Virus record (IMG/VR): IMGVR_UViG_3300031853_000031
Location: 4,579 to 68,578 of that record
DNA: 64,000 nucleotides
Reading direction: 5' to 3' (one strand)
Origin: a virus
Taxonomy: Duplodnaviria; Caudoviricetes
The notes beneath the pieces were generated by a model, which was not told where the DNA came from, did not search any database, and worked only from the letters and a program-made list of their open reading frames with translations. This document shows, in pieces, positions 5,324 to 44,759 of the stretch. Position numbers and translations under genes: made by a program. The stretch's first letter is position 1. Each line of letters opens with the position of its first letter.

Positions 5324-5500
5324 TTATTAGTACAAATTGGCTAAAAGAACCGCTTGATACCTAACTATTATCAATTGATGTAGAATTGAACAAGAGATGC
5401 AAGACGGTCGGCAACCACGCATTATAAGCGGTTCTTCAACGCCAATAGAAGTACTAAGCAGTACTAAAAAGCAGACTATTAGTACAGTATTAGTACTGCT
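5324..5500. other. Probable attP region
   Basis: Non-coding gap between convergent lysin and integrase; AGTAC(T/A) arm-type repeats (about 5329, 5450, 5460, 5481, 5492); 11-bp inverted repeat AAGAACCGCTT 5345-5355 / AAGCGGTTCTT 5426-5436. Confidence 0.65.
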
Positions 5501-6680
5501 TTATTTTACTCATTTCTTTAATCAACCAGGAAGTTGGTCGCTCTGTATAGACAGATTCTGTGATGTCGGCTTTTACGGAGTGGCCAACTATCCTCTTGAT
5601 TGCAAAGTCATCAACGCCATATTTCTTTGCAAGGGAGACGAAGTGTTTTCTGGCGTCATGAAGTCTATGGTCAGGACTTATCCCATAAGCCTTGGTAAAA
5701 GTTTCATACTTTGCTCTAAGAGTGTTGTAGGCATAGGGCTTGCCTTCGTTGGTGACCAGTAACTCATGCCCACTCGCAAGAAAAACTTCGATTATATTTT
5801 TTACCAATGGATGGATTGGGATGATGCGATCACGACCGGCTTCAGTCTTCATGCCGCCAACCATATAACCATCTTCTAAAAAGACGTTGCTTGACTTCAT
5901 AGTGATAACTTCTCTTGGTCTAAGACCGGAATAGCACTGCAGCAGGGTTATTCTTGCAAGAGGTTCATGCTGGTTCTCCCAAAGGATTCTCATCTCATCG
6001 TCGGTGTAGGTGATGTGGGGTTTCTGGGTCTTAACTTCGCCCTTTAACTTATATTCTCTTGCATAGTTCCGATCAGTTATCTCAAACTCAATGGCATAGT
6101 CAAAGAGCTGGTTAAAGAGTTTCTTTATATTTCTCTTAGTGTTCTCGGTTGGGGACTGCTTCTTACCTCGTCTTATAACATATCCTTCTTCCATGCAAAA
6201 CTTAATGTGCTTTATCCTTATCTCTCTAAAGGGTGTATCATAGATCAGATGACAGTAATGGTAAGCCGACTCCACATTCACAAGTGTAGCAGAGGTTATA
6301 TTTTTTGAGTGCCTTGCTATCCACTTGTCATAGACTTCCTTAAAGGTAAGGTCAGATGCTAACTCATACGGCGATTTGTTGTACTCCACAAGAGCCATAT
6401 AAGCATCGTTGTAAGTATCAAAGTAAGCCTGAGGTTTAAGGAGCTTACCAATAGGTCTGCCATTTTCATCCTTACCGACAGTAACCATAGCCCGGTAAGG
6501 TTTTCTAACTCTTCCTTTGATTTTTGTAATTCGTCCAAAACCGTTAGGAAGTCGTAATCGTTTTCTGGAAATTTTCCCGGGTGGGATTTTTGGAAATTGC
6601 TTTTGGGGATTACCACAATGGGGACAAGAGTAGGCTTTGTCTGAAACTTGTAATCCGCATTCTTGACATGTAATCAACAT
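5490..6680 (-). CDS. int: Tyrosine integrase with N-terminal zinc ribbon
   Basis: YSGLRPRE (Arg I), KTEAG (Lys), HDARKHF (HxxR) and IVGH...TESVY (His, Tyr nucleophile); RLPNGFG arm-binding domain; CQEC...CPHC ribbon; RBS AAGGAGG. Confidence 0.95.
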   Translation of the reverse strand: MLITCQECGLQVSDKAYSCPHCGNPQKQFPKIPPGKISRKRLRLPNGFGRITKIKGRVRKPYRAMVTVGKDENGRPIGKLLKPQAYFDTYNDAYMALVEYNKSPYELASDLTFKEVYDKWIARHSKNITSATLVNVESAYHYCHLIYDTPFREIRIKHIKFCMEEGYVIRRGKKQSPTENTKRNIKKLFNQLFDYAIEFEITDRNYAREYKLKGEVKTQKPHITYTDDEMRILWENQHEPLARITLLQCYSGLRPREVITMKSSNVFLEDGYMVGGMKTEAGRDRIIPIHPLVKNIIEVFLASGHELLVTNEGKPYAYNTLRAKYETFTKAYGISPDHRLHDARKHFVSLAKKYGVDDFAIKRIVGHSVKADITESVYTERPTSWLIKEMSKIKQY

Positions 6681-6701
6681 TTGTACTACCTCCTTGTTAG
6701 T

Positions 6702-6730
6702 ACTATAACAGGCGGACGCAAAAAAGACAA
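6702..6730 (-). promoter_or_regulatory. Sigma-A-type integrase promoter overlapping the divergent phage promoter
   Basis: Minus strand TTGTCT-17 bp-TATAGT with TG extended -10; overlaps the CGCAA promoter at 6717-6740. Confidence 0.65.
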
Positions 6731-6746
6731 GTGGTATAATGAAAGA

Positions 6747-6890
6747 AAGTATATAAGAACTTATAGTTAGGTAGAGAGAATCGAAAGACTATTCCGACGC
6801 GGGATGAGGTGAGAAACCTACGAACCGGTACCCGGACTTGAAATACAGACGGAAAGCTATAAGTTTCTAAGTATACAACTCTTGTCTTTT
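6747..6890 (+). ncRNA. Putative structured ncRNA 1 (about 140 nt)
   Basis: Downstream of promoter 6717; no ORF; closing stem AACTTATAGTT 6758-6768 / AGCTATAAGTT 6855-6865 extended by GTATA/TATAC; T-loop-like AGGTGAGAAACCT; ends at a T-run. Confidence 0.65.
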
Positions 6891-6924
6891 TTTTCGCAAA
6901 ATCTACATTGGGTATAATGAAAGG

Positions 6925-7146
6925 AAAGAAAAAACTGATGAAGCCTAAGTGCGTTTTAACGAACGCATACGGTGAGCACGCAGGCTATGTAATCTTTTAA
7001 GGCACTATCATACCGGGAGTGAGCAGAGGGTGATGTGTTATATGCGGCGGCGAGATTACATGAGCGTTAATCTCCAAAGGGGAAAGCCCTAAGTGACGTA
7101 AGTTGGTATCAGTAAATTCGCTTTCTAATCAACGCATTATTTTTTT
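6925..7146 (+). ncRNA. Putative structured ncRNA 2 (about 220 nt)
   Basis: Downstream of promoter 6895; no ORF; stems CTGATG/TATCAG, AGCCT/AGGCT, TGCGTT/AACGCA, ATGTAATCT/AGATTACAT and GGG-GAAA-GCCC; T-run at about 7141. Confidence 0.65.
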
Positions 7147-7148
7147 CA

Positions 7149-7177
7149 TAGACTACCAATGTAACATTTGGTATAAT
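7149..7177 (+). promoter_or_regulatory. Sigma-A-type promoter for the 7200 ORF
   Basis: TAGACT-17 bp-TATAAT with TG extension; the spacer CCAATGTAACATTTGG is near-palindromic. Confidence 0.6.
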
Positions 7178-7199
7178 TTTTCCAAAGGAGGTATTTGAC

Positions 7200-7565
7200 A
7201 TGGGTTTAGTTAATATGAAATGCCCTAATTGTGGAGCGGAGTTGAAGATCGATAAGGATAGGGAAAATGTTTACTGCGAGTATTGCGGTTCTCATGTCTA
7301 TTCTCTAATCAAGACAAAAATCGTAGAAGAACATGTTACTAGGGATGAAACTCAGATAAAGAAAATGGAGATAGAAAAACAAGAACGGGAGAAAATGGAG
7401 AAGTACACAGCCCCATTTCTTACCGGTGATCTCGGCGCAATGCTAATCCTTTTTGGGATACTAGGGGAGTATTCTAATTGGTCTCTATTCACAAAAATAA
7501 TATGTATGATACTAGGCGTTGGCTTACTAATCCTAGCACTGATATTATATTTGAAAAAGAAATAA
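7200..7565 (+). CDS. Zinc-ribbon membrane protein (moron or superinfection-exclusion candidate)
   Basis: CPNCG...CEYCG ribbon; two C-terminal hydrophobic helices; RBS AAAGGAGG. Confidence 0.75.
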   Translation: MGLVNMKCPNCGAELKIDKDRENVYCEYCGSHVYSLIKTKIVEEHVTRDETQIKKMEIEKQEREKMEKYTAPFLTGDLGAMLILFGILGEYSNWSLFTKIICMILGVGLLILALILYLKKK

Positions 7566-7599
7566 TTTTTCGCAAAATCTACAGCGCTTATAATGAAAG

Positions 7600-7806
7600 G
7601 AGGTAGACCGCAAAAGATAAGACGGCATTAGTCATATCTATATACATGTCTATTTCACATCTAAAAGGGAAGTGATGTAATACCAAGCACCTCAAAGGTG
7701 GAAGGGTTGCAGTTTTCGACCAATCGTTCAATGAACGTAATGCGGAAGAGCTGTCCGGAACTGGAGTGTAAGTTGTTTTGGTGGAGCAGCTTCCTCTTTT
7801 CTTTTT
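7600..7806 (+). ncRNA. Putative structured ncRNA 3 (about 200 nt)
   Basis: Downstream of promoter 7571; SD-like AAAGGAGG with no following start codon; hairpins CACCT/AGGTG, GGTTG/CGACC, CGTTC/GAACG and GAAGAGCTG/CAGCTTC; T-run at the end. Confidence 0.5.
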
Positions 7807-7884
7807 GCCTGAACGAAGTGAAGACAAGCGAGCATCGCAAAATTTACACTCCTTATAGTAGAAAGATTAAGGAGGTATATTACC

Positions 7885-8073
7885 ATGAAAAAAGCTATAA
7901 CGATTATATTAAGTGTCATATTCGTATTAATGATTTGTGTTTTTGGAATGACTATTTTTAGCTTTATGGCTATTAATAGAGCGAGTGACGAAATCACAAC
8001 TACCATTGAGCGAATTGAAAACGAAAATGAAAAAGTCGATTTAGATTTAGAAAACTTGGTAAATGAATTCTGA
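7885..8073 (+). CDS. Small N-terminal TM protein
   Basis: Own promoter (7836), RBS AAGGAGG and downstream hairpin repeat. Confidence 0.75.
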   Translation: MKKAITIILSVIFVLMICVFGMTIFSFMAINRASDEITTTIERIENENEKVDLDLENLVNEF

Positions 8074-8178
8074 TTTTTGTCCTGAGCAAGACTTTAAACT
8101 GCTCATATTTTTTTCGCAAAATTTACAACTCCTATAATGAAAGAAGGAACTATAGATTTATTATAGGAGGACAAAACA

Positions 8179-8376
8179 ATGTTAAGAACATTAAATAATA
8201 TAGATGTAACAGAAATTGTTTGGAAACTATTAAAAGAGGTTTTCACCTTTGTAGTAATCTTTTGCTGCGTATGGGTAGCAGTAAAGGTGTCTACATTGGT
8301 AGACTTCAAAGTGTTTGCGTTAGTAATGTTAGGAATTATTTATGTGTTAATGTGTAAATTATCTAAAGATTCGTAG
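8179..8376 (+). CDS. Small two-TM protein
   Basis: Own promoter (8115); RBS AGGAGG. Confidence 0.75.
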   Translation: MLRTLNNIDVTEIVWKLLKEVFTFVVIFCCVWVAVKVSTLVDFKVFALVMLGIIYVLMCKLSKDS

Positions 8377-8510
8377 TTCCTCTTTCAAATCCTGAGCAAG
8401 ATTTAAAACTGCTCATTTTCTTTTTGCCATGATGGGGGATCGAATAAGGCACGCAGGTGACGTTATCTAATTGTAAACTTTCACTTATCAAACTATAAGG
8501 AGGTTTCACA

Positions 8511-8717
8511 ATGATAGCTTTTAGAAAAGGTCACATGCCAGTGTCTGTCGCCGCTAAAATATTCGGTAAGGATGCGAGTTGGGTTAGAGCCGGTATAACG
8601 GAAGGTTGGCTACCCATCGGCATCGTAACAGGTCAGGGTAAGAGGTGTAACTATTATATTTCACCAAAGAAGGTCTATGAGCTTACAGGTTACTTATGGG
8701 AGGGTGAGGAGATATGA
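8511..8717 (+). CDS. HTH DNA-binding protein (Xis-like)
   Basis: PVSVAAKIFGKDASWVRAG HTH; YYISPKK wing; RBS AAGGAGG. Confidence 0.7.
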   Translation: MIAFRKGHMPVSVAAKIFGKDASWVRAGITEGWLPIGIVTGQGKRCNYYISPKKVYELTGYLWEGEEI

Positions 8718-9097
8718 GTACGGTAATAAGAAACGAAGTATCCAAGTCCAACCCCTACTATCTCCCAAAGCACCGTTATCTGGAGCTTAAGCACTTCTGC
8801 CTGCAGTATCCTGATTGGAGAAAGGAATACGGAGCTATTATATTTGAGAAAGATGATGACTTTGACCCGACCGGCAAGAAGGCTGTAAGGCTTAAGATGC
8901 TGACGGATAGGATGGCTATGGTGGAAGAGACTGCTAAAGAGGTAGATCCAGTATTAGCAGAGTATCTCTTTTTTGCTGTAACGGGAGATAAGTCCTATAC
9001 ATACCTTAGAACAGCTATGAATATACCCTGTGGCAAGAATCTATACTACGACCTTTACAGGAAGTTCTGGTGGCTACTTAGTAAGAAACGGGAGTAG
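8714..9097 (+). CDS. RinA/ArpU-like transcriptional regulator
   Basis: ELKHFCLQYPDW; C-terminal HTH-like SYTYL...IPCGKNLYYDLYRKFWWLL. Confidence 0.55.
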   Translation: MSTVIRNEVSKSNPYYLPKHRYLELKHFCLQYPDWRKEYGAIIFEKDDDFDPTGKKAVRLKMLTDRMAMVEETAKEVDPVLAEYLFFAVTGDKSYTYLRTAMNIPCGKNLYYDLYRKFWWLLSKKRE

Positions 9098-9157
9098 ACG
9101 CAAGAAAAGCAGTGGTTATAATGAACCACTTAACTTGTTAAAAGAAAGGAGAATATT

Positions 9158-9367
9158 ATGAGCAAGTTAAAAAGAGAGACGTTAATGACATTAGTTGATG
9201 AGATAGGAGCGTATAATGATGCGGTATTGAAACTCTTCAAATGCATGGAAGAGGAAAAGATCGGCAAAGATAAACCACTGCTCCTACTCAAACAGTTGGA
9301 GGTCAGTGTACACGGTCTCAACCTTAACGAAGCCGTATCCAAAGTTTTGGACGAATTAAGTGAGTAA
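9158..9367 (+). CDS. Hypothetical early protein
   Basis: Promoter 9099; RBS GAAAGGAG; GAAA-loop hairpin follows. Confidence 0.7.
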   Translation: MSKLKRETLMTLVDEIGAYNDAVLKLFKCMEEEKIGKDKPLLLLKQLEVSVHGLNLNEAVSKVLDELSE

Positions 9368-9475
9368 ACTTATAAGGGCTCTGCCAGAAATGGCATCCCT
9401 TATAAACTTTTCGCAAAAATTACACCTCTTATAATAGAATCAAGAGGAATATTTTATTATAGGAGGTATGTTATC

Positions 9476-9691
9476 ATGATTAAATATTATATTACACTGG
9501 CTGTAGCAGGTATTTGTAACGCTATGGGCATTCTGATTGGAATGTTCTGTAGATTTCTTACCAATAACGGGATTAATATCCCTGAGGTAGTAACCATGCA
9601 GAATGTGTCCAAGGCATGTTTCCTGGTGTTCATTATCATGTTGGTCATTATGAATATTATGTTAATTATCGAAAGAAAACACAATAAGTAA
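9476..9691 (+). CDS. Small two-TM protein
   Basis: Promoter 9412; RBS AGGAGG; hairpin repeat at 9703. Confidence 0.75.
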   Translation: MIKYYITLAVAGICNAMGILIGMFCRFLTNNGINIPEVVTMQNVSKACFLVFIIMLVIMNIMLIIERKHNK

Positions 9692-9771
9692 ACTCTGATC
9701 AAGTCCTGAGCAAGACTTTAAACTGCTCATTATTTTTTTTTCGCAATAATTACATTCCTTATAATGAAGGA

Positions 9772-10215
9772 ATAATGTAAGGTTTGAGAGACCAACCTTA
9801 AAGATGGATTAAGCCATTGATAAATGGTAGCGTAGCCGTATCGCTAGGCTTGCTTAAATATCCTGGGCGTTAGGTCATTATTTCTACAAAATTATGTAGA
9901 CAAGTTATCACACGGACACGTGGTGGTGGCTACCTAATAATCGTTGATGAAGGGTTATTAGAGTGACGCAGATGATAATCGTAAGTCGGGCAGGCAATAA
10001 ACTGAAAAGGTGTTATTGTTTAAACTACAGATTTTGGGAACAGATATTATGTATGGCTGTTACGATAGTTAGGTGATCGAAAGTGAGCATGAACTCTTAT
10101 GAGGTGAGAAACCTGAACTGTGTGGCTATAAATCGAGCCATTGACGCCAGTATCTCTGAAGGCTGGTGGGCAGCGTTTGATGCGTGCGGTCCTAAGCATA
10201 GTATTTATTTTTTTT
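9772..10215 (+). ncRNA. Putative large structured ncRNA 4 (about 440 nt)
   Basis: Downstream of promoter 9742; no ORF of 60 aa or more; many stems (TAAGGTT/AACCTTA, GTAGCC/GGCTAC, TCTACA/TGTAGA, CTAATAAT/GTTATTAG, GGCAATAA/TTATTGTT, TGGCT/AGCCA, GCCAG/CTGGT); shares a module with ncRNA 1; ends at a T-run. Confidence 0.7.
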
Positions 10216-10235
10216 CTTAGAAAGGAGGTGAAATC

Positions 10236-10505
10236 GTGTTAACTAATATTATATTTTTGGCTGTTGGAGTTTTTGTAACGGTGTGGGCTTTTATCATACT
10301 AGACAGACTTACCGGCATTAGGAACAAACCCGTAGGTGAGCTTCAGGTGGATACAGAAAAGGAGATAGTCCAGTTAGTTTTCTATTCTACTCAGGACCTG
10401 CATCTCTCTATCCATGATAAGACCAGAGTGACCTTTGACGTGGTCCATAAGAGTCTGGATTTTAAGATCCCGGAAGAGTTCACGCAAGGAAAACAGAGCC
10501 TATAA
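10236..10505 (+). CDS. N-terminal TM hypothetical protein
   Basis: RBS AAAGGAGG; GTG start. Confidence 0.7.
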   Translation: MLTNIIFLAVGVFVTVWAFIILDRLTGIRNKPVGELQVDTEKEIVQLVFYSTQDLHLSIHDKTRVTFDVVHKSLDFKIPEEFTQGKQSL

Positions 10506-10547
10506 TGAAGGTGTTGTTAAGCATTATCCAAAGAAAGGAGTTATATC

Positions 10548-10997
10548 ATGGATAAGATTGCTGAGAATCACGAAGAACTTATTGAGAAGTTGCAGGCGCA
10601 TTTGCTTAAGCTGGATCCGGGTGATCCGCAGTATGGTAAGTTGCAAGCACGGTTGGATGCCATGATGAGGCAACGGAGTACAGACTTTAGAAACGAGCTT
10701 GACGCTATTGAGAACAACGAGCGTCTTGAGTTCGATCGCTGGAAAGCTGAGAAGGAAGCAGAAGAGAAAGCTGCTCAGAGAAAGGCTGACCAGGAGAAAA
10801 CCGAGAAGGAGTATGAGATCAACAAGGTCAAGAACAGGAATGATAAAGTCAGGAATGTTGTTGAATTCTTAAAGACTGGCTTCACCGTTTGCGTACCTGC
10901 CGCGTTAACCTGGGTGTTGGCAAAGAAGGAGATGGATCCTGTCGAACCGATCAATGTTAGACAAAGGATTTGGAATCTGATTCCAAAGATTAAGTAA
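10548..10997 (+). CDS. Charged coiled-coil protein with C-terminal hydrophobic segment
   Basis: Promoter 10483; RBS GAAAGGAG. Confidence 0.75.
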   Translation: MDKIAENHEELIEKLQAHLLKLDPGDPQYGKLQARLDAMMRQRSTDFRNELDAIENNERLEFDRWKAEKEAEEKAAQRKADQEKTEKEYEINKVKNRNDKVRNVVEFLKTGFTVCVPAALTWVLAKKEMDPVEPINVRQRIWNLIPKIK

Positions 10998-11125
10998 CTA
11001 TTGGTAATTGCATGAAAACACACTTTATAGCCTCTGTCAGAAATGACAGGGGTTATATTTTTTTCGCAAAAATGACAGCTGTTATAGTAGGAACCTATGG
11101 AATATTATTAATGGAGGTATTTAAT

Positions 11126-11371
11126 ATGAAGGTATACGTGTTAGTAAGCAAGTATAATGAGAACGACAAGCCGAGGTTTACAACTGATGTATTTCAGTCT
11201 TACGGAGAAGCTAATGACGCGGCGTTTGAGCGGATTAATAAAATAATCGGAGAGGATTATGTGTTTGATCGTGAAGCGTCGACAACAAGAGTGAAAATCG
11301 TAAGAAAAGTAGATTCAGGTTGGCTTGGTAGGGTTACTCACAGGTTTGTAATCACGGAAAACGAACTCTAA
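11126..11371 (+). CDS. Hypothetical early protein
   Basis: Promoter 11065; RBS GGAGG precedes ATG 11126, so the track start at 11012 would run through the terminator and promoter. Confidence 0.7.
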   Translation: MKVYVLVSKYNENDKPRFTTDVFQSYGEANDAAFERINKIIGEDYVFDREASTTRVKIVRKVDSGWLGRVTHRFVITENEL

Positions 11372-11467
11372 ACCTGTTCCTAGTCCTGAGCAAGACTTTA
11401 AACTGCTCATTATATTTTTTTCAATAATTACAGAGGCTATAATAGAAAAGCAAAGGAGGTAACAATT

Positions 11468-11680
11468 ATGAACCTAAAGTCGGAAGTAGCTTTGTACGAT
11501 TCCATGGTTGAAACTGAAGATTTGATTGAAAATATTCAAGGGAGGATTTATGGTTTTACAACAATCCCCCTTGAGGAAAGAGATGAGCTTTCAAGGAAAC
11601 TGTATGAGATTCGTATGAAGTTAGTAGATTATTCTAATGCATTAGGTGAGTCGTTAGTTATTATGGAAGCTTTTGATTAA
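11468..11680 (+). CDS. Acidic helical hypothetical protein
   Basis: Degenerate promoter 11420; RBS AAAGGAGG. Confidence 0.7.
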   Translation: MNLKSEVALYDSMVETEDLIENIQGRIYGFTTIPLEERDELSRKLYEIRMKLVDYSNALGESLVIMEAFD

Positions 11681-11729
11681 GGTAATAGTCCTGAGCAAGA
11701 CTTTAAACTGCTCATTATATTTTTCGCTT

Positions 11730-12035
11730 ATGACTTACAAAATCTACAAATGTGACCATTCTGTGTATTCTACATGTACATTATATTTTCATAAAGGTAA
11801 AGGACTAGCCATCATCCAGCAACGCTTTAACAAGAGGCTTAAGGTAACGTTCTGGTCGTCTGTTGACAAGGATTTAGCTGCAGAGATCGCTTATCATGAG
11901 AAGTTCTATGAATATTTCGTTGCTGAAGCAGGCTTCGCTAATGATGGATTATATCCTACCAAGACTATTAGACAGGTTATGTGGGCTCTTAAGATGAAAC
12001 CACTAAAGAAACATCCTTGGGAGACTCGTTGGTGA
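11730..12035 (+). CDS. Hypothetical protein
   Basis: First in-frame ATG after the hairpin repeat; no clear RBS or promoter. Confidence 0.5.
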   Translation: MTYKIYKCDHSVYSTCTLYFHKGKGLAIIQQRFNKRLKVTFWSSVDKDLAAEIAYHEKFYEYFVAEAGFANDGLYPTKTIRQVMWALKMKPLKKHPWETRW

Positions 12036-12100
12036 GTTCGCAAGAATAACAAAGGCTATAATGAAACCTGTTGGTGAGTTGAAGAAAGGAGTACATGTAA

Positions 12101-12172
12101 ATGGAAATGTTGGCGGTTTTCATGATCGCTTTGGGAATTTATATTCTCTATAAAGAGCATACAAAAACCTGA
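12101..12172 (+). CDS. 23-aa hydrophobic peptide MEMLAVFMIALGIYILYKEHTKT (not in ORF track)
   Basis: Own promoter 12039; RBS GAAAGGAG; downstream hairpin and T-run. Confidence 0.6.
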   Translation: MEMLAVFMIALGIYILYKEHTKT

Positions 12173-12286
12173 AGCAAATCATGAATAGGACTAAAGGAGG
12201 CTTTACAGTCTCCTTTCTTTTTCGCAAGAATAACACCTCCTATAATAGGTACAAGTTGATGTACATATTAAGAAAGGAGAACCATT

Positions 12287-12409
12287 ATGGTAAGTATTTT
12301 TGCGGGAGTTGTATTAGGTATCGCTTTAGTAGCGATGATACCGGCAGCAGAAGCCGTAAGTACAGAATTCCAGAAAGGAGAAATCCTTCTGAAGTACAAT
12401 CACGAGTAA
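12287..12409 (+). CDS. 40-aa hydrophobic peptide MVSIFAGVVLGIALVAMIPAAEAV... (not in ORF track)
   Basis: Own promoter 12223; RBS GAAAGGAG; GAAA terminator at 12414. Better supported than track ORF 12181-12447. Confidence 0.65.
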   Translation: MVSIFAGVVLGIALVAMIPAAEAVSTEFQKGEILLKYNHE

Positions 12410-12522
12410 ACGATAAGGAGCTTTGTAGAAATTACAAGGCTCCTTAGTTCTTCCGCAAAAATAACATCTCATATAATGAAGCGTATAGTGTGCTTCGTTA
12501 TATTTTAAAGGAGGATTTTATT

Positions 12523-22580: not shown

Positions 22581-22855
22581 TCCGCAAGAAAAGCAGTTGG
22601 TATAATGGAAGGCTATAGGTCTTACTATTATATTTTGAAAGGAGTTTTATTATGAAGAAAGTATTGTTAGGAACTGGTTTAGGTTTCTTTGGCACCTGTT
22701 GTTTGTTATGCTGGAGGTGTCGTGATGATGCCTGGACCAAGGAGTTTACAGATTTTCTCTGGGAAGTGAACTCTGATTGTAAGAAAAAGATACTATAGTT
22801 GTACAAAGGGCTCTGTAATTATATTTACAGGGTCCTTTAGTTTTTTCGTTGGTTT

Positions 22856-34162: not shown

Positions 34163-34691
34163 AGGTTCTCATTCTTTTTTGGGTGCCTCTAAGTATCATT
34201 GGATACGATACGACGAGGATAAGTTCAGGAAAGCATGGAGTAACCATGAAGCAGCCTTACGAGGCACTGCTGATCACGAGTTTGCAGCCTTGTGTATTGC
34301 ACGTGGTCAGAAGTTACCTCGTAGTAAACAAACCCTTAACATGTACGTTAACGACGCAATAGGCTTTGGGCTTAAGCCCGAGGTCACGTTGCGGTATTCT
34401 GATAACGCCTTCGCGACAGCTGATGCTATTGATTTCAAAGAGCGTAAGAAGTTGTTGCAAATCTTTGATTTGAAGACTGGTGTCGTTCCGGCACATATGG
34501 AGCAGCTGCTTGTGTACGCTGCTTATTTTTGTTTGGAATACAAGATGCGTCCTTCTGAATTCAAAACAGAACTTCGTATCTATCAGAACAGTGACGTCGT
34601 AATTTATGAACCCGAAGTAGATGAGATTGTCCCCATAATGGACAAGATCATTCACTTTAACAAGATCATCGAAGAGAGGAAATACCAATGA
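34134..34691 (+). CDS. PD-(D/E)xK (Cas4/RecB-like) exonuclease
   Basis: RGTADH, ATADAI, IFDLKTG and EQLLVYA. Confidence 0.75.
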   Translation: MNFNEHFKLKGSHSFLGASKYHWIRYDEDKFRKAWSNHEAALRGTADHEFAALCIARGQKLPRSKQTLNMYVNDAIGFGLKPEVTLRYSDNAFATADAIDFKERKKLLQIFDLKTGVVPAHMEQLLVYAAYFCLEYKMRPSEFKTELRIYQNSDVVIYEPEVDEIVPIMDKIIHFNKIIEERKYQ

Positions 34692-37615
34692 GTATTATTA
34701 TATTCTCAGATGAGTTGATGCATTATGGTACTCCTCATTCGGGAGCAACCCCACACTCAGGACGCTATCCTTGGGGATCTGGTAAGAATCCACAAAGACA
34801 TAAAAGTATTCTTCAGAGAGCTGGCGAACTTAAAGAAGCTGGATTTACAGCTAGTGAGGTAAGAGCAGTTATGGGTACCACGGATAGCGAAATAGCTGCG
34901 GCTAAAGCTAGAGAGAACAAATGGGGTGATGCTGATGCTCTTCACGAACAGAACAAGGCAACGCTTGCTAAGATTAAGAAGCTTGAAGAAGAAGGTAAGA
35001 CATCGACACAGATTAAAGAAGAAACCGGGTTATCCAGTGGTGATGTTAGAGCTTTAAAGTCTGTCGTAAAGAAGCGTCAGCTTCAACTCGATGTTACAGA
35101 GGCTAGAAGACTTCGAGATGAGGAACACCTTGGGCCCACTGAAATTGCTCGACGTATGAACACTGGTGAGTCTACGATTCGTAACTATCTTAAAGACTCG
35201 TATAAAGAGAAAGTGGATCGTCAAGATGACATCATCAATGTTTTAAAGGCCGAGGTCGATAAAAAGAAATACATTGACGTTGGTAAAGGTGTTGAACTTC
35301 AGCTCAATATTACAAGGGATAAACTTGACAAAACTGTAAAAGAACTTAAACAGCAAGGGTATACTATACACCATTTATCCGTTCCACAAGCTACTAATCC
35401 TGTACACAAAACATCGATCCAGGTATTAACCAAAGATGATGTACCGTGGAAAGAAGTTAATGCTAATCGTGAAAAAGTAGCAACCATATTGGATGTGTAT
35501 TCGGATGGTGGTGAGATTAAGAAGAAAGCCCCACCCGTCAGTATTGACTCATCACGTATCATGATTCGATACAACGAAGATGGTGGTGTAGATAAGGACG
35601 GTGTGTTGGAGCTTAGGCCAAGCGCTAAAGACTTATCGATGGGTGGAAACCGGTATTCTCAAGTCCGAGTCGCAGTTGATGACACCCACTATCTTAAAGG
35701 CATGGCGATGTATGCTGATGAGAAGGACTTCCCACCAGGTATCGATATTATATTTAACACTAATAAGCATAGGGGCACACCTATGATCGGAGAAGATGCT
35801 GATCATGAAGTTCTTAAGCGATTGAAGACTGATAAAGTCACCGGTGATGTTGATGTCGATAATCCTTTCGGTGCTATTGTAAAACAAAAGACGTATGTTG
35901 GAGACGATGGAAAGGAACATCAGTCCCCCATCAACATCGTTAACGAAGATGAAGACTGGGAGAAGTGGTCAAAGAATCTTTCTGCACAGTTCTTATCTAA
36001 ACAATATTTAGCTACTGCTAAGAAACAATTAGACCTCACATATAGAGATAAAGTGAAAGAGTTTGAAGAGATTCAGGCTCTTACCAATCCCGTTCTCAAA
36101 GAAAAACTGATGCGGTCTTTTGCTGATGATTGCGATTCAGCAGCAGTTCATCTCAAGGCTAAGGCGTTTGATCGGCAAGCGAGTCATGTTATTCTTCCTA
36201 TGCCTTGGAATAAACCTAATGAGATCTATGCACCGAATTATGAACAGGGTGAGGAATTGGCTCTTGTACGATATCCACACGGTGGAACGTTCGAGATTGC
36301 TATCGTTACTGTTAACAATAACAATCCTAAAGCTAGAAGATTAATAGGTAACGCCGCACACGCTGTGGGTATTAATCCAGAAGTAGCACAACAGTTATCT
36401 GGTGCAGACTTTGATGGTGATACTGTAGTTTGTATTCCTACTAGAGGTAATAAGATTAAGGCAACGAAAGCTATTAAGGAGTTAATAGACTTCGAGCCTA
36501 AAGAAAAGTATCCTGCTTACGAAGGTATGCCTCGTGTCGGTCCTGATACTGGATTCCATAAACAGGCTGAGATGGGTCGAGTTACAAATCTTATCACGGA
36601 TATGACCATTAAGCACGCCACTACTGAAGAAATTATTAAAGCTACTAAACATTCCATGGTAGTAATAGACGCTGAAAAGCATAATCTCGATTGGAGGCGT
36701 AGCTATGAAGAGAATCAGATAGAGGCGTTGAAGCGTAAATATCAGAACACCGCTTCTAACGGACGTCCGGGTGGATCATCGACTATCATCTCTCGTGCAA
36801 AGTCCCCCTACATGGCTCCTGAAATAGACACCAACCGGCCCTATAAGATCAATCCTGAAACCGGGGAGAAGGAGTTCCAGTTTACAAACAAGACCCATAA
36901 CAAAAGAAATAAAGACGGGACCTATAGCGACAAAGAGATACCCAACACCTATAAATCCACCAAGATGTACTGGGCTAAGGACGCCTATGAACTAACGTCT
37001 GATGGGAAGGGTGGTACTAAGATGGAACAAGCCTATGCTGACTATGCTAATAGTCTTAAAGCATTAGGTGATAGGGCCAGACTGGAGTCGGTCCATATAG
37101 AGAGTATCCCCTATTCAAAAGAAGCCCGTCGTGTTTACAAAGCTGAAGTAGAATCGTTACAGGCTAAACTTAATGCTGCTATAGCCCACTCTCCTAAAGA
37201 ACGTAAGGCTCAACTTGTAGCGTCTAAAGTGATTGCTGCTAAAAAAGAGGCCAATCCAGACATGACTAAAGAAGAGGAGAAGAAGATGCGGTCTATAGCT
37301 ATAGCAGACGCACGTTCTCATCTTATAGGTACACAGAGTAAGCCTCGTATTACAGAGATTACAGATCGTGAATGGGAAGCAATTCAGTCTGGTGCTGTTA
37401 CTAAGTCCATGCTTAGAGAGATTATTGATAACTCTGATCAAGACATGATTAGACAAAGAGCAACACCAAGAACTAATAGTAAGACATTAACACCTGCACA
37501 GAGGGCTAGTATACACGCCATACTTACTAACCCCAACAACAAAGTAACACAAGCTGAATTAGCTAAACGTTACAATGTTTCAGTATCTACGATCAATAAG
37601 ATTGCTCGTGAATAA
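34688..37615 (+). CDS. Single-chain two-barrel RNA polymerase (YonO / RdRP-like) with HTHs and N-terminal HxG tag
   Basis: SGADFDGD at 36398-36421; LVRYP upstream; QVRV...YLKGM second-barrel motif; HTHs GPTEIARRMNTGESTIRNYL and TQAELAKRYNVSVSTINKI; starts SDELMHYG. Confidence 0.85.
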   Translation: MSIIIFSDELMHYGTPHSGATPHSGRYPWGSGKNPQRHKSILQRAGELKEAGFTASEVRAVMGTTDSEIAAAKARENKWGDADALHEQNKATLAKIKKLEEEGKTSTQIKEETGLSSGDVRALKSVVKKRQLQLDVTEARRLRDEEHLGPTEIARRMNTGESTIRNYLKDSYKEKVDRQDDIINVLKAEVDKKKYIDVGKGVELQLNITRDKLDKTVKELKQQGYTIHHLSVPQATNPVHKTSIQVLTKDDVPWKEVNANREKVATILDVYSDGGEIKKKAPPVSIDSSRIMIRYNEDGGVDKDGVLELRPSAKDLSMGGNRYSQVRVAVDDTHYLKGMAMYADEKDFPPGIDIIFNTNKHRGTPMIGEDADHEVLKRLKTDKVTGDVDVDNPFGAIVKQKTYVGDDGKEHQSPINIVNEDEDWEKWSKNLSAQFLSKQYLATAKKQLDLTYRDKVKEFEEIQALTNPVLKEKLMRSFADDCDSAAVHLKAKAFDRQASHVILPMPWNKPNEIYAPNYEQGEELALVRYPHGGTFEIAIVTVNNNNPKARRLIGNAAHAVGINPEVAQQLSGADFDGDTVVCIPTRGNKIKATKAIKELIDFEPKEKYPAYEGMPRVGPDTGFHKQAEMGRVTNLITDMTIKHATTEEIIKATKHSMVVIDAEKHNLDWRRSYEENQIEALKRKYQNTASNGRPGGSSTIISRAKSPYMAPEIDTNRPYKINPETGEKEFQFTNKTHNKRNKDGTYSDKEIPNTYKSTKMYWAKDAYELTSDGKGGTKMEQAYADYANSLKALGDRARLESVHIESIPYSKEARRVYKAEVESLQAKLNAAIAHSPKERKAQLVASKVIAAKKEANPDMTKEEEKKMRSIAIADARSHLIGTQSKPRITEITDREWEAIQSGAVTKSMLREIIDNSDQDMIRQRATPRTNSKTLTPAQRASIHAILTNPNNKVTQAELAKRYNVSVSTINKIARE

Positions 37616-43025: not shown

Positions 43026-44759
43026 ATGGCATTATCTAACACTGCCACTCCTTACTACTATGGTCAATTTCGTGATGCGGTAATGAGAGGTGAGATACCT
43101 GTCTGTGAGACTATTGTTATGCAGATGAATCTCATCGACAAGTTAATAGAAGATGCTAGATACTACTATGACGATCGGGCTGTCGAAGGTTGGATTAAGT
43201 TCTGTGAAGCCGAGCTTACTCTGACTGATGGTTCCGATCTTTTCTTATTACCGACATTCAAACTCTGGGCTGAGGACGTCTATGGTTGGTACCACTTTAT
43301 AGAAGAAGACGTCTGGAACAGAGCACAACGACGCTTTATCAAGAAACAGGTAAAGCATCGTCTAAGAAACAAGCAATACTTGATAGTTGCCAGAGGAGCG
43401 GCTAAGACTGTATATGGTGAATGTCATCAGGCTTATGGTCTGACGGTAGACACTACTACAACTCATCAGATTACCACGGCTCCAACCATGAAACAAGCAG
43501 AAGAAATACTATCTCCTTTCAGAACTGCTATAACCAGGGCTCGTGGGCCGCTCTTCCGGTTTCTTACAGAAGGATCTCTCCAGAACACCACTGGCAACAA
43601 AGCACTTAGACAAAAACTTGCATCCACAAAGAAGGGCGTTGAGAACTTCTTAACGAATTCTCTCCTTGAAGTACGACCTATGTCTATCAACAAGCTTCAG
43701 GGGTTACAGAACAAGTATTCCACTGTCGATGAGTGGTTGTCTGGTGACATCAGAGAGGACGTTATAGGTGCCCTAGAGCAGGGCGCATCTAAGGTGGATG
43801 ACTGGCTCATCATTGCTATGAGTTCAGAGGGAACAGTCCGTAATGGAGCTGGCGATACCATCAAAATGGAGCTTATGGACATCCTTAAAGGTAAGTATGA
43901 AGCTCCTAACGTGTCTATCTGGTGGTACAAACTCGACAACCTTGAAGAAGTAAACATGCCTGAGATGTGGTTGAAAGCCAATCCTAATCTTGGTGCGACC
44001 GTATCTTACGAGACTTACGAGATTGAGAAGCAGAGAGCTGAGAACGCACCTGCCGCTCGTAATGACATCCTTGCTAAAAGATTCGGTATCCCTATGGAGG
44101 GGTATACTTACTTCTTTACTTACGAGGAAACCTTCTGTCACGAGAAGAGGGACTACTGGCAGATGGAATGTGCTATGGGTGCTGACCTTTCTCAGGGTGA
44201 TGACTTCTGTGCATTCACTTTCCTATTCCCTCTTGGCGATGGTTCCTTCGGCATTAAGACCAGGTCCTACATCACTTCTTTAACTCTTCACAAACTTCCA
44301 GCTGCTATGAGAATTAAGTACGACGAGTTCATGAAAGAAGGTTCTCTCATTGTTCTTGAGGGTACGGTTCTTAACATGATGGAAGTCTATGAAGACTTGG
44401 ATGAGTTTATTACAGCTAACGAGTATGATGTCAACTGCTTCGGTTACGACCCGTACAACGCAAAAGCTTTTGTGGAGAGATGGGAACTGGAGCATGGACC
44501 TTTTGGTACTGTGAAAGTCATTCAAGGTGCCAGAACAGAATCAGTCCCCCTTGGCGAACTTAAGAAACTCGCCGAAGAGAGACTACTCTTGTTTGATGAG
44601 GAACTTATGTCCTTTACGATGGGGAACTGTATCACCCTTGAAGATACTAATGGTAACCGGAAACTGCTTAAAAAGCGCTATGAGCATAAGATTGATAATG
44701 TCGCAGCTCTAATGGATGCTTTCATAGCTTATAAGGAAAATCTGGATATGTTTGATTAG
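43026..44759 (+). CDS. Terminase large subunit
   Basis: VARGAAKT (Walker A), TVDEW (Walker B), GADLSQGDDF (RNase H-like nuclease), KIDNVAALMDA. Confidence 0.95.
   Translation: MALSNTATPYYYGQFRDAVMRGEIPVCETIVMQMNLIDKLIEDARYYYDDRAVEGWIKFCEAELTLTDGSDLFLLPTFKLWAEDVYGWYHFIEEDVWNRAQRRFIKKQVKHRLRNKQYLIVARGAAKTVYGECHQAYGLTVDTTTTHQITTAPTMKQAEEILSPFRTAITRARGPLFRFLTEGSLQNTTGNKALRQKLASTKKGVENFLTNSLLEVRPMSINKLQGLQNKYSTVDEWLSGDIREDVIGALEQGASKVDDWLIIAMSSEGTVRNGAGDTIKMELMDILKGKYEAPNVSIWWYKLDNLEEVNMPEMWLKANPNLGATVSYETYEIEKQRAENAPAARNDILAKRFGIPMEGYTYFFTYEETFCHEKRDYWQMECAMGADLSQGDDFCAFTFLFPLGDGSFGIKTRSYITSLTLHKLPAAMRIKYDEFMKEGSLIVLEGTVLNMMEVYEDLDEFITANEYDVNCFGYDPYNAKAFVERWELEHGPFGTVKVIQGARTESVPLGELKKLAEERLLLFDEELMSFTMGNCITLEDTNGNRKLLKKRYEHKIDNVAALMDAFIAYKENLDMFD

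Follow-up and report, generated by a model that had tools for sequence, protein, structure and literature searches.

A promoter-led non-coding early cassette of a temperate phage ends in a new small folded-RNA domain

Introduction

Phage non-coding RNAs are poorly catalogued. Small folded RNAs from the early or immunity regions of temperate elements include the C4 RNA of P1/P7 and the CI RNA of P4. Folded RNAs built around the GAAA tetraloop and its 11-nt receptor, or around T-loops, include P4–P6 of group I introns, RNase P, T-box stem I and the TPP and c-di-GMP-I riboswitches. Two further classes, GOLLD and ROOL, are encoded by phages or prophages, have no known function and often lie near tRNAs; ROOL has a mean length of 581 nt and was first seen in cow rumen data (PMC5737381; bioRxiv 10.1101/2024.12.08.627333). 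At the level of genome organization, the early region of T4-type phages contains PeSL (promoter-early stem-loop) modules, small repeats that combine a strong promoter with a stem-loop terminator and mediate modular shuffling: this region is plastic, the modules lie on either side of short units that are not essential, and recombination between modules inserts, deletes and shuffles those units (Arbiol et al. 2010, PMC2839356).

Here we describe nc4, an ORF-free stretch of ~440 nt on the plus strand (9772–10215) that lies between a promoter copy and a T-run in the early region of a temperate phage. The nc4 unit is a real promoter-led non-coding cassette, and its 3′ third is a new small folded-RNA domain. 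As with PeSL, repeated promoter and hairpin/T-run modules stand between small units, and units appear to be inserted or deleted at these modules between relatives (a 474-bp unit is missing in one). Unlike the T4-type phages, however, this phage is temperate, is probably from the cattle gut, encodes an integrase and has Clostridia-like relatives, its promoter places TTCGCAA only 14 nt from the −10 box, its module sequences differ and the cargo of the cassette is non-coding. By analogy, the nc4 cassette works like a PeSL module and is not a member of that group.

The RNA itself can be set against the other precedents. Like C4 and CI RNA, nc4 is an at least partly folded RNA unit from the early region of a temperate element, whereas it has no match to C4, no antisense target above chance and is apparently dispensable. 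With ROOL and GOLLD it has in common that it is an ORF-free phage RNA, and its cattle-gut setting recalls that of ROOL in the rumen, but it is smaller, has 175 conserved nt and belongs to a family of three copies. It resembles the receptor- and T-loop-containing RNAs in having UAUGG and CCUAAG across a helix, a CGAAAG box and a UGAGAAA hairpin loop, yet it matches none of group I introns, RNase P, T-box, TPP or c-di-GMP-I.

Results and discussion

The window analysed here is a 64-kb stretch, bases 4579–68578 of a virus record that is 68,578 bp long and has direct repeats at its termini. One bovine gut metagenome contains 99% of the words sampled from the window; it is probably the source sample, and the phage probably originates from the cattle gut. 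An integrase gene on the minus strand (5490–6680), together with detected terminase, portal and prohead protease genes, identifies a temperate tailed phage in which nearly all genes besides the integrase are on the plus strand. The large terminase (43026–44759) shares ~73% identity with its counterparts in actinobacterial phages (Microbacterium phage Count and Streptomyces and Rhodococcus phages), and the early genes resemble those of gut Clostridia phages such as Faecalibacterium phage FP_oengus. Full-length relatives of the integrase in GTDB genomes are only 25–32% identical (Lachnospiraceae, Eubacteriales and Bacteroidia MAGs).

Behind the integrase, a promoter-like module, TTCGCAA-N14-TATAAT, recurs on the plus strand between 6.7 and 12.5 kb in 10 to at least 11 copies. 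The motif has 16 matches against 4.6 expected, a count reached by none of 100 shuffles. Most copies sit 30–45 nt upstream of a ribosome site and a small ORF, and a hairpin followed by a T-run (repeat family D3) is present five times in the early region. We infer from sequence that these repeated modules act as promoters and terminators. The 14-nt gap between TTCGCAA and TATAAT differs from the normal −35 spacing of sigma-70 promoters. In the window the promoter family extends over 6893–12480, with copies also at 22581 and 33783, and five copies are found in record G001. The phage also encodes a 975-aa protein (34688–37615) with matches to a sigma-70 region 4-like HTH. The space beside the integrase is occupied by ORF-free RNA units, and a cI/cro pair is not visible there. 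Two such units, nc2 (6925–7146) and nc3 (7604–7831), follow promoter copies.

nc4 occupies one promoter-to-T-run interval of this region, 3 kb from the integrase (Table 1). The promoter and terminator that the initial annotation had placed around it fared differently: the promoter is indeed present as a member of the repeated family at 9738–9765, with transcription predicted to start near 9772, and the T-run is present at 10204–10215, but a terminator scanner finds no canonical hairpin at 10205. In the predicted fold the U-run instead directly follows the 11-bp helix that closes the whole 3′ domain. Twenty nucleotides, including a ribosome site region, separate the U-run from the start of the downstream 89-aa gene.

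Table 1 Features of the nc4 unit and of its paralogue nc1 (window coordinates)
Feature	Position	Strand	Details
nc1, stand-alone paralogue of the 3′ domain	6748–6895	+	Own promoter copy
Upstream cassette boundary	9702–9737	+	Hairpin TGAGCA/TGCTCA plus T-run, one of five D3 copies; closes the 71-aa gene 9476–9691
Promoter copy TTTTCGCAATAATTACATTCCTTATAAT	9738–9765	+	−10 box 9760–9765; predicted start near 9772
nc4 5′ part, orphan	9772–10040	+	Predicted hairpins 9778–9800, 9903–9931 (loop GACA), 9934–9961 and 9992–10021
nc4 3′ domain, diverged copy of the nc1 fold	10042–10206	+	Outer helix 10042–10052/10196–10206; inner helix 10055–10063/10184–10191
UAUGG, 5′ strand of conserved internal loop	10052–10056	+	Sequence; position common to nc1 and L029a
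Boxes ATAGTTAGGT and ATCGAAAG	10065–10083	+	Common to nc1 (6763 and 6780); exact over 10 and 8 nt
ATGAGGTGAGAAACCT	10099–10114	+	16-nt exact match to nc1 at 6804; hairpin AGG-UGAGAAA-CCU at 10102–10114
CCUAAG, 3′ strand of conserved internal loop	10191–10196	+	CUAAG invariant in 3 of 3 copies (alignment A3)
U-rich end TTTATTTTTTTT	10204–10215	+	Repeats the T-run 9729–9742, 474 bp upstream
Ribosome site and 89-aa gene (GTG 10236)	10222–10505	+	No own promoter after nc4

The evidence that part of nc4 is a conserved RNA comes from nc1, a stand-alone RNA unit of ~140 nt next to the integrase and behind its own promoter copy, which shares three exactly matching blocks with nc4 in the same order: ATAGTTAGGT over 10 nt, ATCGAAAG over 8 nt and ATGAGGTGAGAAACCT over 16 nt. 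Among 59 loci fetched via two conserved early proteins we found an orthologue of nc1, L029a (IMGVR_UViG_3300012979_000044, locus L029, bases 5447–5590), which is preceded by TTCGCGA-N14-TATTAT, the form of the promoter in that other phage; downstream of L029a come another promoter and another ORF-free unit. When nc1 and L029a are simply aligned with MAFFT, RNAalifold yields 24 pairs, 5 of them changed on both sides and none broken, distributed over an outer helix (6 bp), an inner helix (11 bp) and a hairpin stem (4 bp). The hairpin stem covaries, AGG-UGAGAAA-CCU being replaced by GGG-UGAGAAA-CCC in L029a.

A covariance model, R1, built solely from nc1 and L029a, places the 3′ end of nc4 (10046–10220) second in the window, at full length and with 22 bits (E ~0.015–0.018); the match is weak, the E-values are rough and a pre-filtered whole-genome search did not return it. 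When nc4 is added, 98.5% of the pair cells in the three sequences are standard and 10 pairs are changed on both sides, compared with 34–47% of cells pairing in a control in which partners were slid by 1–3 columns; the three-sequence alignment was fitted to R1 and so favours the structure. Independently of the model, the minimum free energy (MFE) fold of nc4 gives the same two closing helices (Table 1), separated by an internal loop with 2 nt on its 5′ side and 4 nt on its 3′ side, so that nc4 shares the two-part closing helix around an invariant CUAAG loop that marks nc1-type domains. The spacing from the CGAAAG box to the hairpin RGG-UGAGAAA-CCY is likewise similar, at 21 nt in nc1 and 19 nt in both L029a and nc4.

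The nc4 copy has also diverged. In nc1 and L029a a UUGAAAUACAGA element stands ahead of the closing helix's 3′ strand; nc4 lacks it and has a 62-nt insert with two hairpins in its place. The T-loop-like hairpin is absent from the MFE fold of nc4, and forcing it costs 4.6 kcal/mol relative to that fold because the ATAGTTAGGT box can pair with the 3′ half of the hairpin instead. Judged by alignment and predicted fold, the 3′ domain of nc4 is one member of a tiny family of folded RNAs that is not yet catalogued, with three copies in two phage genomes in the data searched, numbers too small for a statistical test of covariation. Comparative support extends over ~175 of the 444 nt, at the 3′ end, and there is none for the 5′ 270 nt.

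Some elements of the domain recall known tertiary motifs, and we treat the receptor and T-loop candidates in nc4 as leads. UAUGG and CCUAAG (10191–10196) spell what we take to be the canonical 11-nt GAAA-tetraloop receptor, and the corresponding loop strands of L029a read UAUGA and UCUAAG. In nc4 the canonical register of the receptor conflicts with the best inner helix, which does not continue in that register; a receptor-like pair with a paired outer flank is expected about once per window by chance, and a stable GAAA hairpin stem is found in L029a only. The UGAGAAA loop follows the pattern U-N-N-R-A plus two bases and may be a T-loop. CCUAAG-like and GAAA elements are present in both nc2 and L029b (L029:5611–5750), another ORF-free unit behind a promoter copy; no sequence similarity was detected among nc2, L029b and nc4.

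Searches beyond these copies returned no further relatives. nc4 has no match in the 59 early-protein loci (nhmmer and blastn), nc4 and nc1+nc2 have none by blastn among 50,697 GenBank phages, and a DNA query with nc4 against the whole record G001 gave nothing. R1 detected no new member when run on 151 genomes of Lachnospiraceae, on 5 viral records that are related and on 21 loci, and a pattern search of 401 Clostridia genomes found none. Three pattern scans of IMG/VR recovered only the L029 contig and chance matches, a CRISPR array and coding DNA, and a scan of JGI metagenomes recovered only chance matches of the same kinds. The CRISPR array, with repeat ATATTAATCGCACCATATAGGAATTGAAAT, lies on viral-filed contigs L071 and L072 (IMGVR_UViG_2636416090_000002 and 640196209_000003) and is unrelated. 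For the 5′ part (9772–10040) we found no paralogue, homologue or protein-level similarity in the data searched. The neighbouring proteins of 149, 89 and 71 aa have no relatives in IMG/VR, and the 149-aa protein matches itself alone among 5.8 billion proteins. Within the phage, antisense targets of nc4 are limited to 11–12-mers, which is the chance level. A replication origin or iterons were also considered and rejected, as no tandem or iterated repeats are present.

A relative of the phage suggests that the unit comes and goes as a whole. A 1278-bp ENA contig (sample ERZ27256871) encodes an 88% identical orthologue of the 89-aa neighbour and a 94% identical orthologue (70 aa) of the upstream 71-aa gene, together with a 69-aa gene whose spacing, 318 bp, is that seen in the window. 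The genes that flank nc4 are 74 nt apart in this contig versus 544 nt in the window, and their start-to-start distance differs by 473 bp. Because the T-runs at 9729–9742 and 10203–10216 are direct repeats (D2) 474 bp apart, the promoter-to-U-run unit behaves as an insertion/deletion. By this comparison of gene spacing, the ~474-bp cassette is dispensable, a close relative being without it. nc4 can accordingly be described as present or absent between near-identical phages, and this natural pair is a ready comparison for finding its function.

We consider it fairly probable that nc4 is a stand-alone RNA, made early, whose structured 3′ end is leaky. Carried as non-coding cargo by one of the early promoter/terminator cassettes, it would be transcribed from a copy of the repeated early promoter, starting near 9772, into an RNA of ~440 nt with two parts, a lineage-specific 5′ part (9772–10040) and an nc1-type 3′ domain (10042–10206). 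Since the closing helix runs straight into the U-run, the 3′ domain probably acts as a leaky terminator and 3′ end cap. Read-through past the U-run would supply the 89-aa gene, which probably depends on such upstream transcription, and recombination between the flanking T-runs would gain or lose the cassette as one unit. The transcript ends and the termination are predictions, the tertiary motifs are candidates and any action in trans is putative; as a guess, nc4 could be a stable RNA that, early in infection, serves as a decoy or scaffold for a factor of the host or the phage.

Occurrence in an RNA library bears on this reading. X2, a metatranscriptome of bovine gut produced in another study, contains a 228-nt contig identical to 9811–10038 with 0 mismatches, and the rest of the 6-kb early region is absent from it save for one 34-nt partial match; a randomly placed contig would fall inside the nc4 unit with a chance of ~4–7%. 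The contig is a hint of an abundant RNA and no proof of one: it is an assembled sequence at depth 3.7, carries neither strand nor ends, lies outside the conserved 3′ domain and could stem from DNA carry-over.

What such an RNA would mean is a folded domain that moves as cassette cargo, either alone (nc1) or fused behind an unrelated RNA (nc4). If confirmed, it would add a small new RNA family with tertiary-motif candidates and an example of RNA ‘morons’ in rumen phages. Its value is bounded by a tiny family, an orphan 5′ part and the lack of a functional clue.

The same 3′ end could be read differently, with nc4 as a long cis-acting leader of the 89-aa gene (10236) and the 3′ domain as a riboswitch-like or protein-responsive element whose closing helix and U-run would either stop transcription or allow it to pass. 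The missing promoter of that gene, its start 20 nt from the U-run and the closing helix abutting the U-run all suit a leader, as does the competition between the ATAGTTAGGT box and the T-like hairpin, which amounts to two alternative folds 4.6 kcal/mol apart. The competing pairing is not preserved in L029a, however, the domains of nc1 and L029a precede another promoter and an ORF-free unit rather than a gene, the relative expresses the 89-aa gene without an nc4 leader, and no riboswitch or leader family matches. We therefore regard a leader as unlikely.

A lower probability still, and one we would call slight, attaches to nc4 being functionless transcribed filler, the remnant of a decayed or recombined cassette, retained only through its position between two recombination-prone T-runs. 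Consistent with this are its absence from close relatives, the 5′ 270 nt without a relative in the data searched and an ordinary folding energy, along with contigs from a sheep-gut run (X6) that suggest frequent joints at promoter copies. These contigs join copies at 6922>8108, 8819>9733 and 9765>12504, with short sides and low-likeness joints, and are a weak sign that relatives may carry other cassette orders or subsets. Against filler, the 3′ domain retains the helices and boxes of its family with compensatory changes, and nc4 copies are 97–100% identical in four runs: the source run X1, the RNA run X2 and the DNA runs X3 and X5, whose copies, at 97–98% identity, join the 3′ domain to the 89-aa gene. 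A former reading frame has also left no trace: we rejected a decayed gene after six-frame tblastn of nc4 against related loci and the rest of the phage gave nothing.

Folding energy deserves care in this context, as the initial annotation had called nc4 highly structured on the strength of at least eight stems, a long-range helix among them. nc4 is more stable than its dinucleotide shuffles (z = −2.6 on the plus strand and −1.5 on the minus strand), and the genome as a whole folds better than its own shuffles. Measured against 573 equally long stretches of the genome, with GC and G+U taken into account, nc4 reaches only z = −0.66 (rank 128), ordinary for this genome, and we do not uphold that description; scored separately, the 5′ part has z = −1.57 and the 3′ part z = −0.63. 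As nc1 is just as ordinary (z = −0.07) despite its covariation support, the energy test is uninformative rather than negative. The two arms of the long-range helix, GTAGCC at 9832–9837 and GGCTAC at 9928–9933, are complementary as described, but the helix is absent from both the MFE and the MEA folds, where each arm sits within a local hairpin with a pair probability of 0.90–0.93; by chance alone, 444 nt should contain ~24 pairs of complementary hexamers.

A broader proposal joins the four ORF-free units that follow promoter copies in the early region, nc1, nc2, nc3 and nc4, into one RNA-based system. The units would have tetraloop, receptor-like and T-loop modules in common and would either dock with one another as a defined RNA assembly or stand in for the missing cI/cro-type protein switch next to the integrase; nc4 would be an accessory subunit, present in some strains and absent from others. 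We hold this proposal to be very unlikely.

The initial annotation had set nc4 beside the large ornate RNAs of Firmicute phages, GOLLD and ROOL, had matched it to neither and had allowed that it might be a new class; a search of Rfam with Infernal was among the checks it proposed. We ran that check: cmscan at the gathering score gave no match over the whole window, and relaxed searches, at E up to 10 for 9650–10300 and up to 5 for 6680–7900, returned noise only. The families without a match include ROOL, GOLLD, OLE, raiA, HEARO, C4, T-box and riboswitches. Having no Rfam match, nc4 is not GOLLD or ROOL, and the idea of a large ornate RNA gives way to one in which ~175 of 444 nt are comparatively backed, the 5′ part is an orphan and the energy is ordinary. 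The 3′ third lies in a new small family.

Membership of GOLLD or ROOL, or a distant cousinship possibly involving multimeric cages, is accordingly something to which we give next to no credence. The rumen or cattle-gut origin shared with ROOL (PMC5737381), the phage context, a size of some hundreds of nucleotides and GAAA and receptor-like elements that could link molecules are compatible with it. Set against them are the lack of any match, with the E-value relaxed to 10, to ROOL, GOLLD, OLE, raiA or HEARO, a length below that of ROOL (mean 581 nt) and GOLLD (often >800 nt), and the composite look of an RNA conserved over one third. [quoted passage not shown] The neighbourhood points both ways: the phage context is there, but ARAGORN finds 0 tRNA or tmRNA genes in the 64-kb window; a phage setting, often beside tRNA genes, is typical of those families and does not define them.

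Coding capacity, lastly, is slight. No ORF of 60 aa or more is present, in agreement with the initial annotation, the longest being 45 aa on the plus strand and 50 aa on the minus strand. TAA, TAG and TGA each interrupt all six frames of nc4, so a changed genetic code opens no ORF, and we discarded recoding on this ground. Gene calling on the source contig passed over the best plus-strand ORF (45 aa, GTG 10083), although its neighbours are present in the protein collection, and it has 0 homologues. In nc1 the first and last shared blocks stand 31 nt apart and in nc4 24 nt apart, which shows that the conservation between the two RNAs is out of reading frame. That nc4 encodes one or more small proteins, such as this ORF or a 37-aa ORF at 9963, is thus barely conceivable: an SD-like AGGTGA does lie 6 nt ahead of GTG 10083, but the ORF is missing from the protein collection, overlaps an RNA domain conserved out of frame with nc1 and has no equivalent in nc1.

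One further element lies near the integrase. With the lysin gene on one side and the integrase 3′ end on the other, a hairpin-closed element at 5346–5438 (AAGAACCGCTT / AAGCGGTTCTT) contains ACCTAACTAT at 5359–5368. This sequence is perfectly complementary to the ATAGTTAGGT box that nc1 and nc4 share, a complementarity for which ~0.06–0.12 occurrences are expected by chance. The element could be attP, an RNA target or a coincidence.
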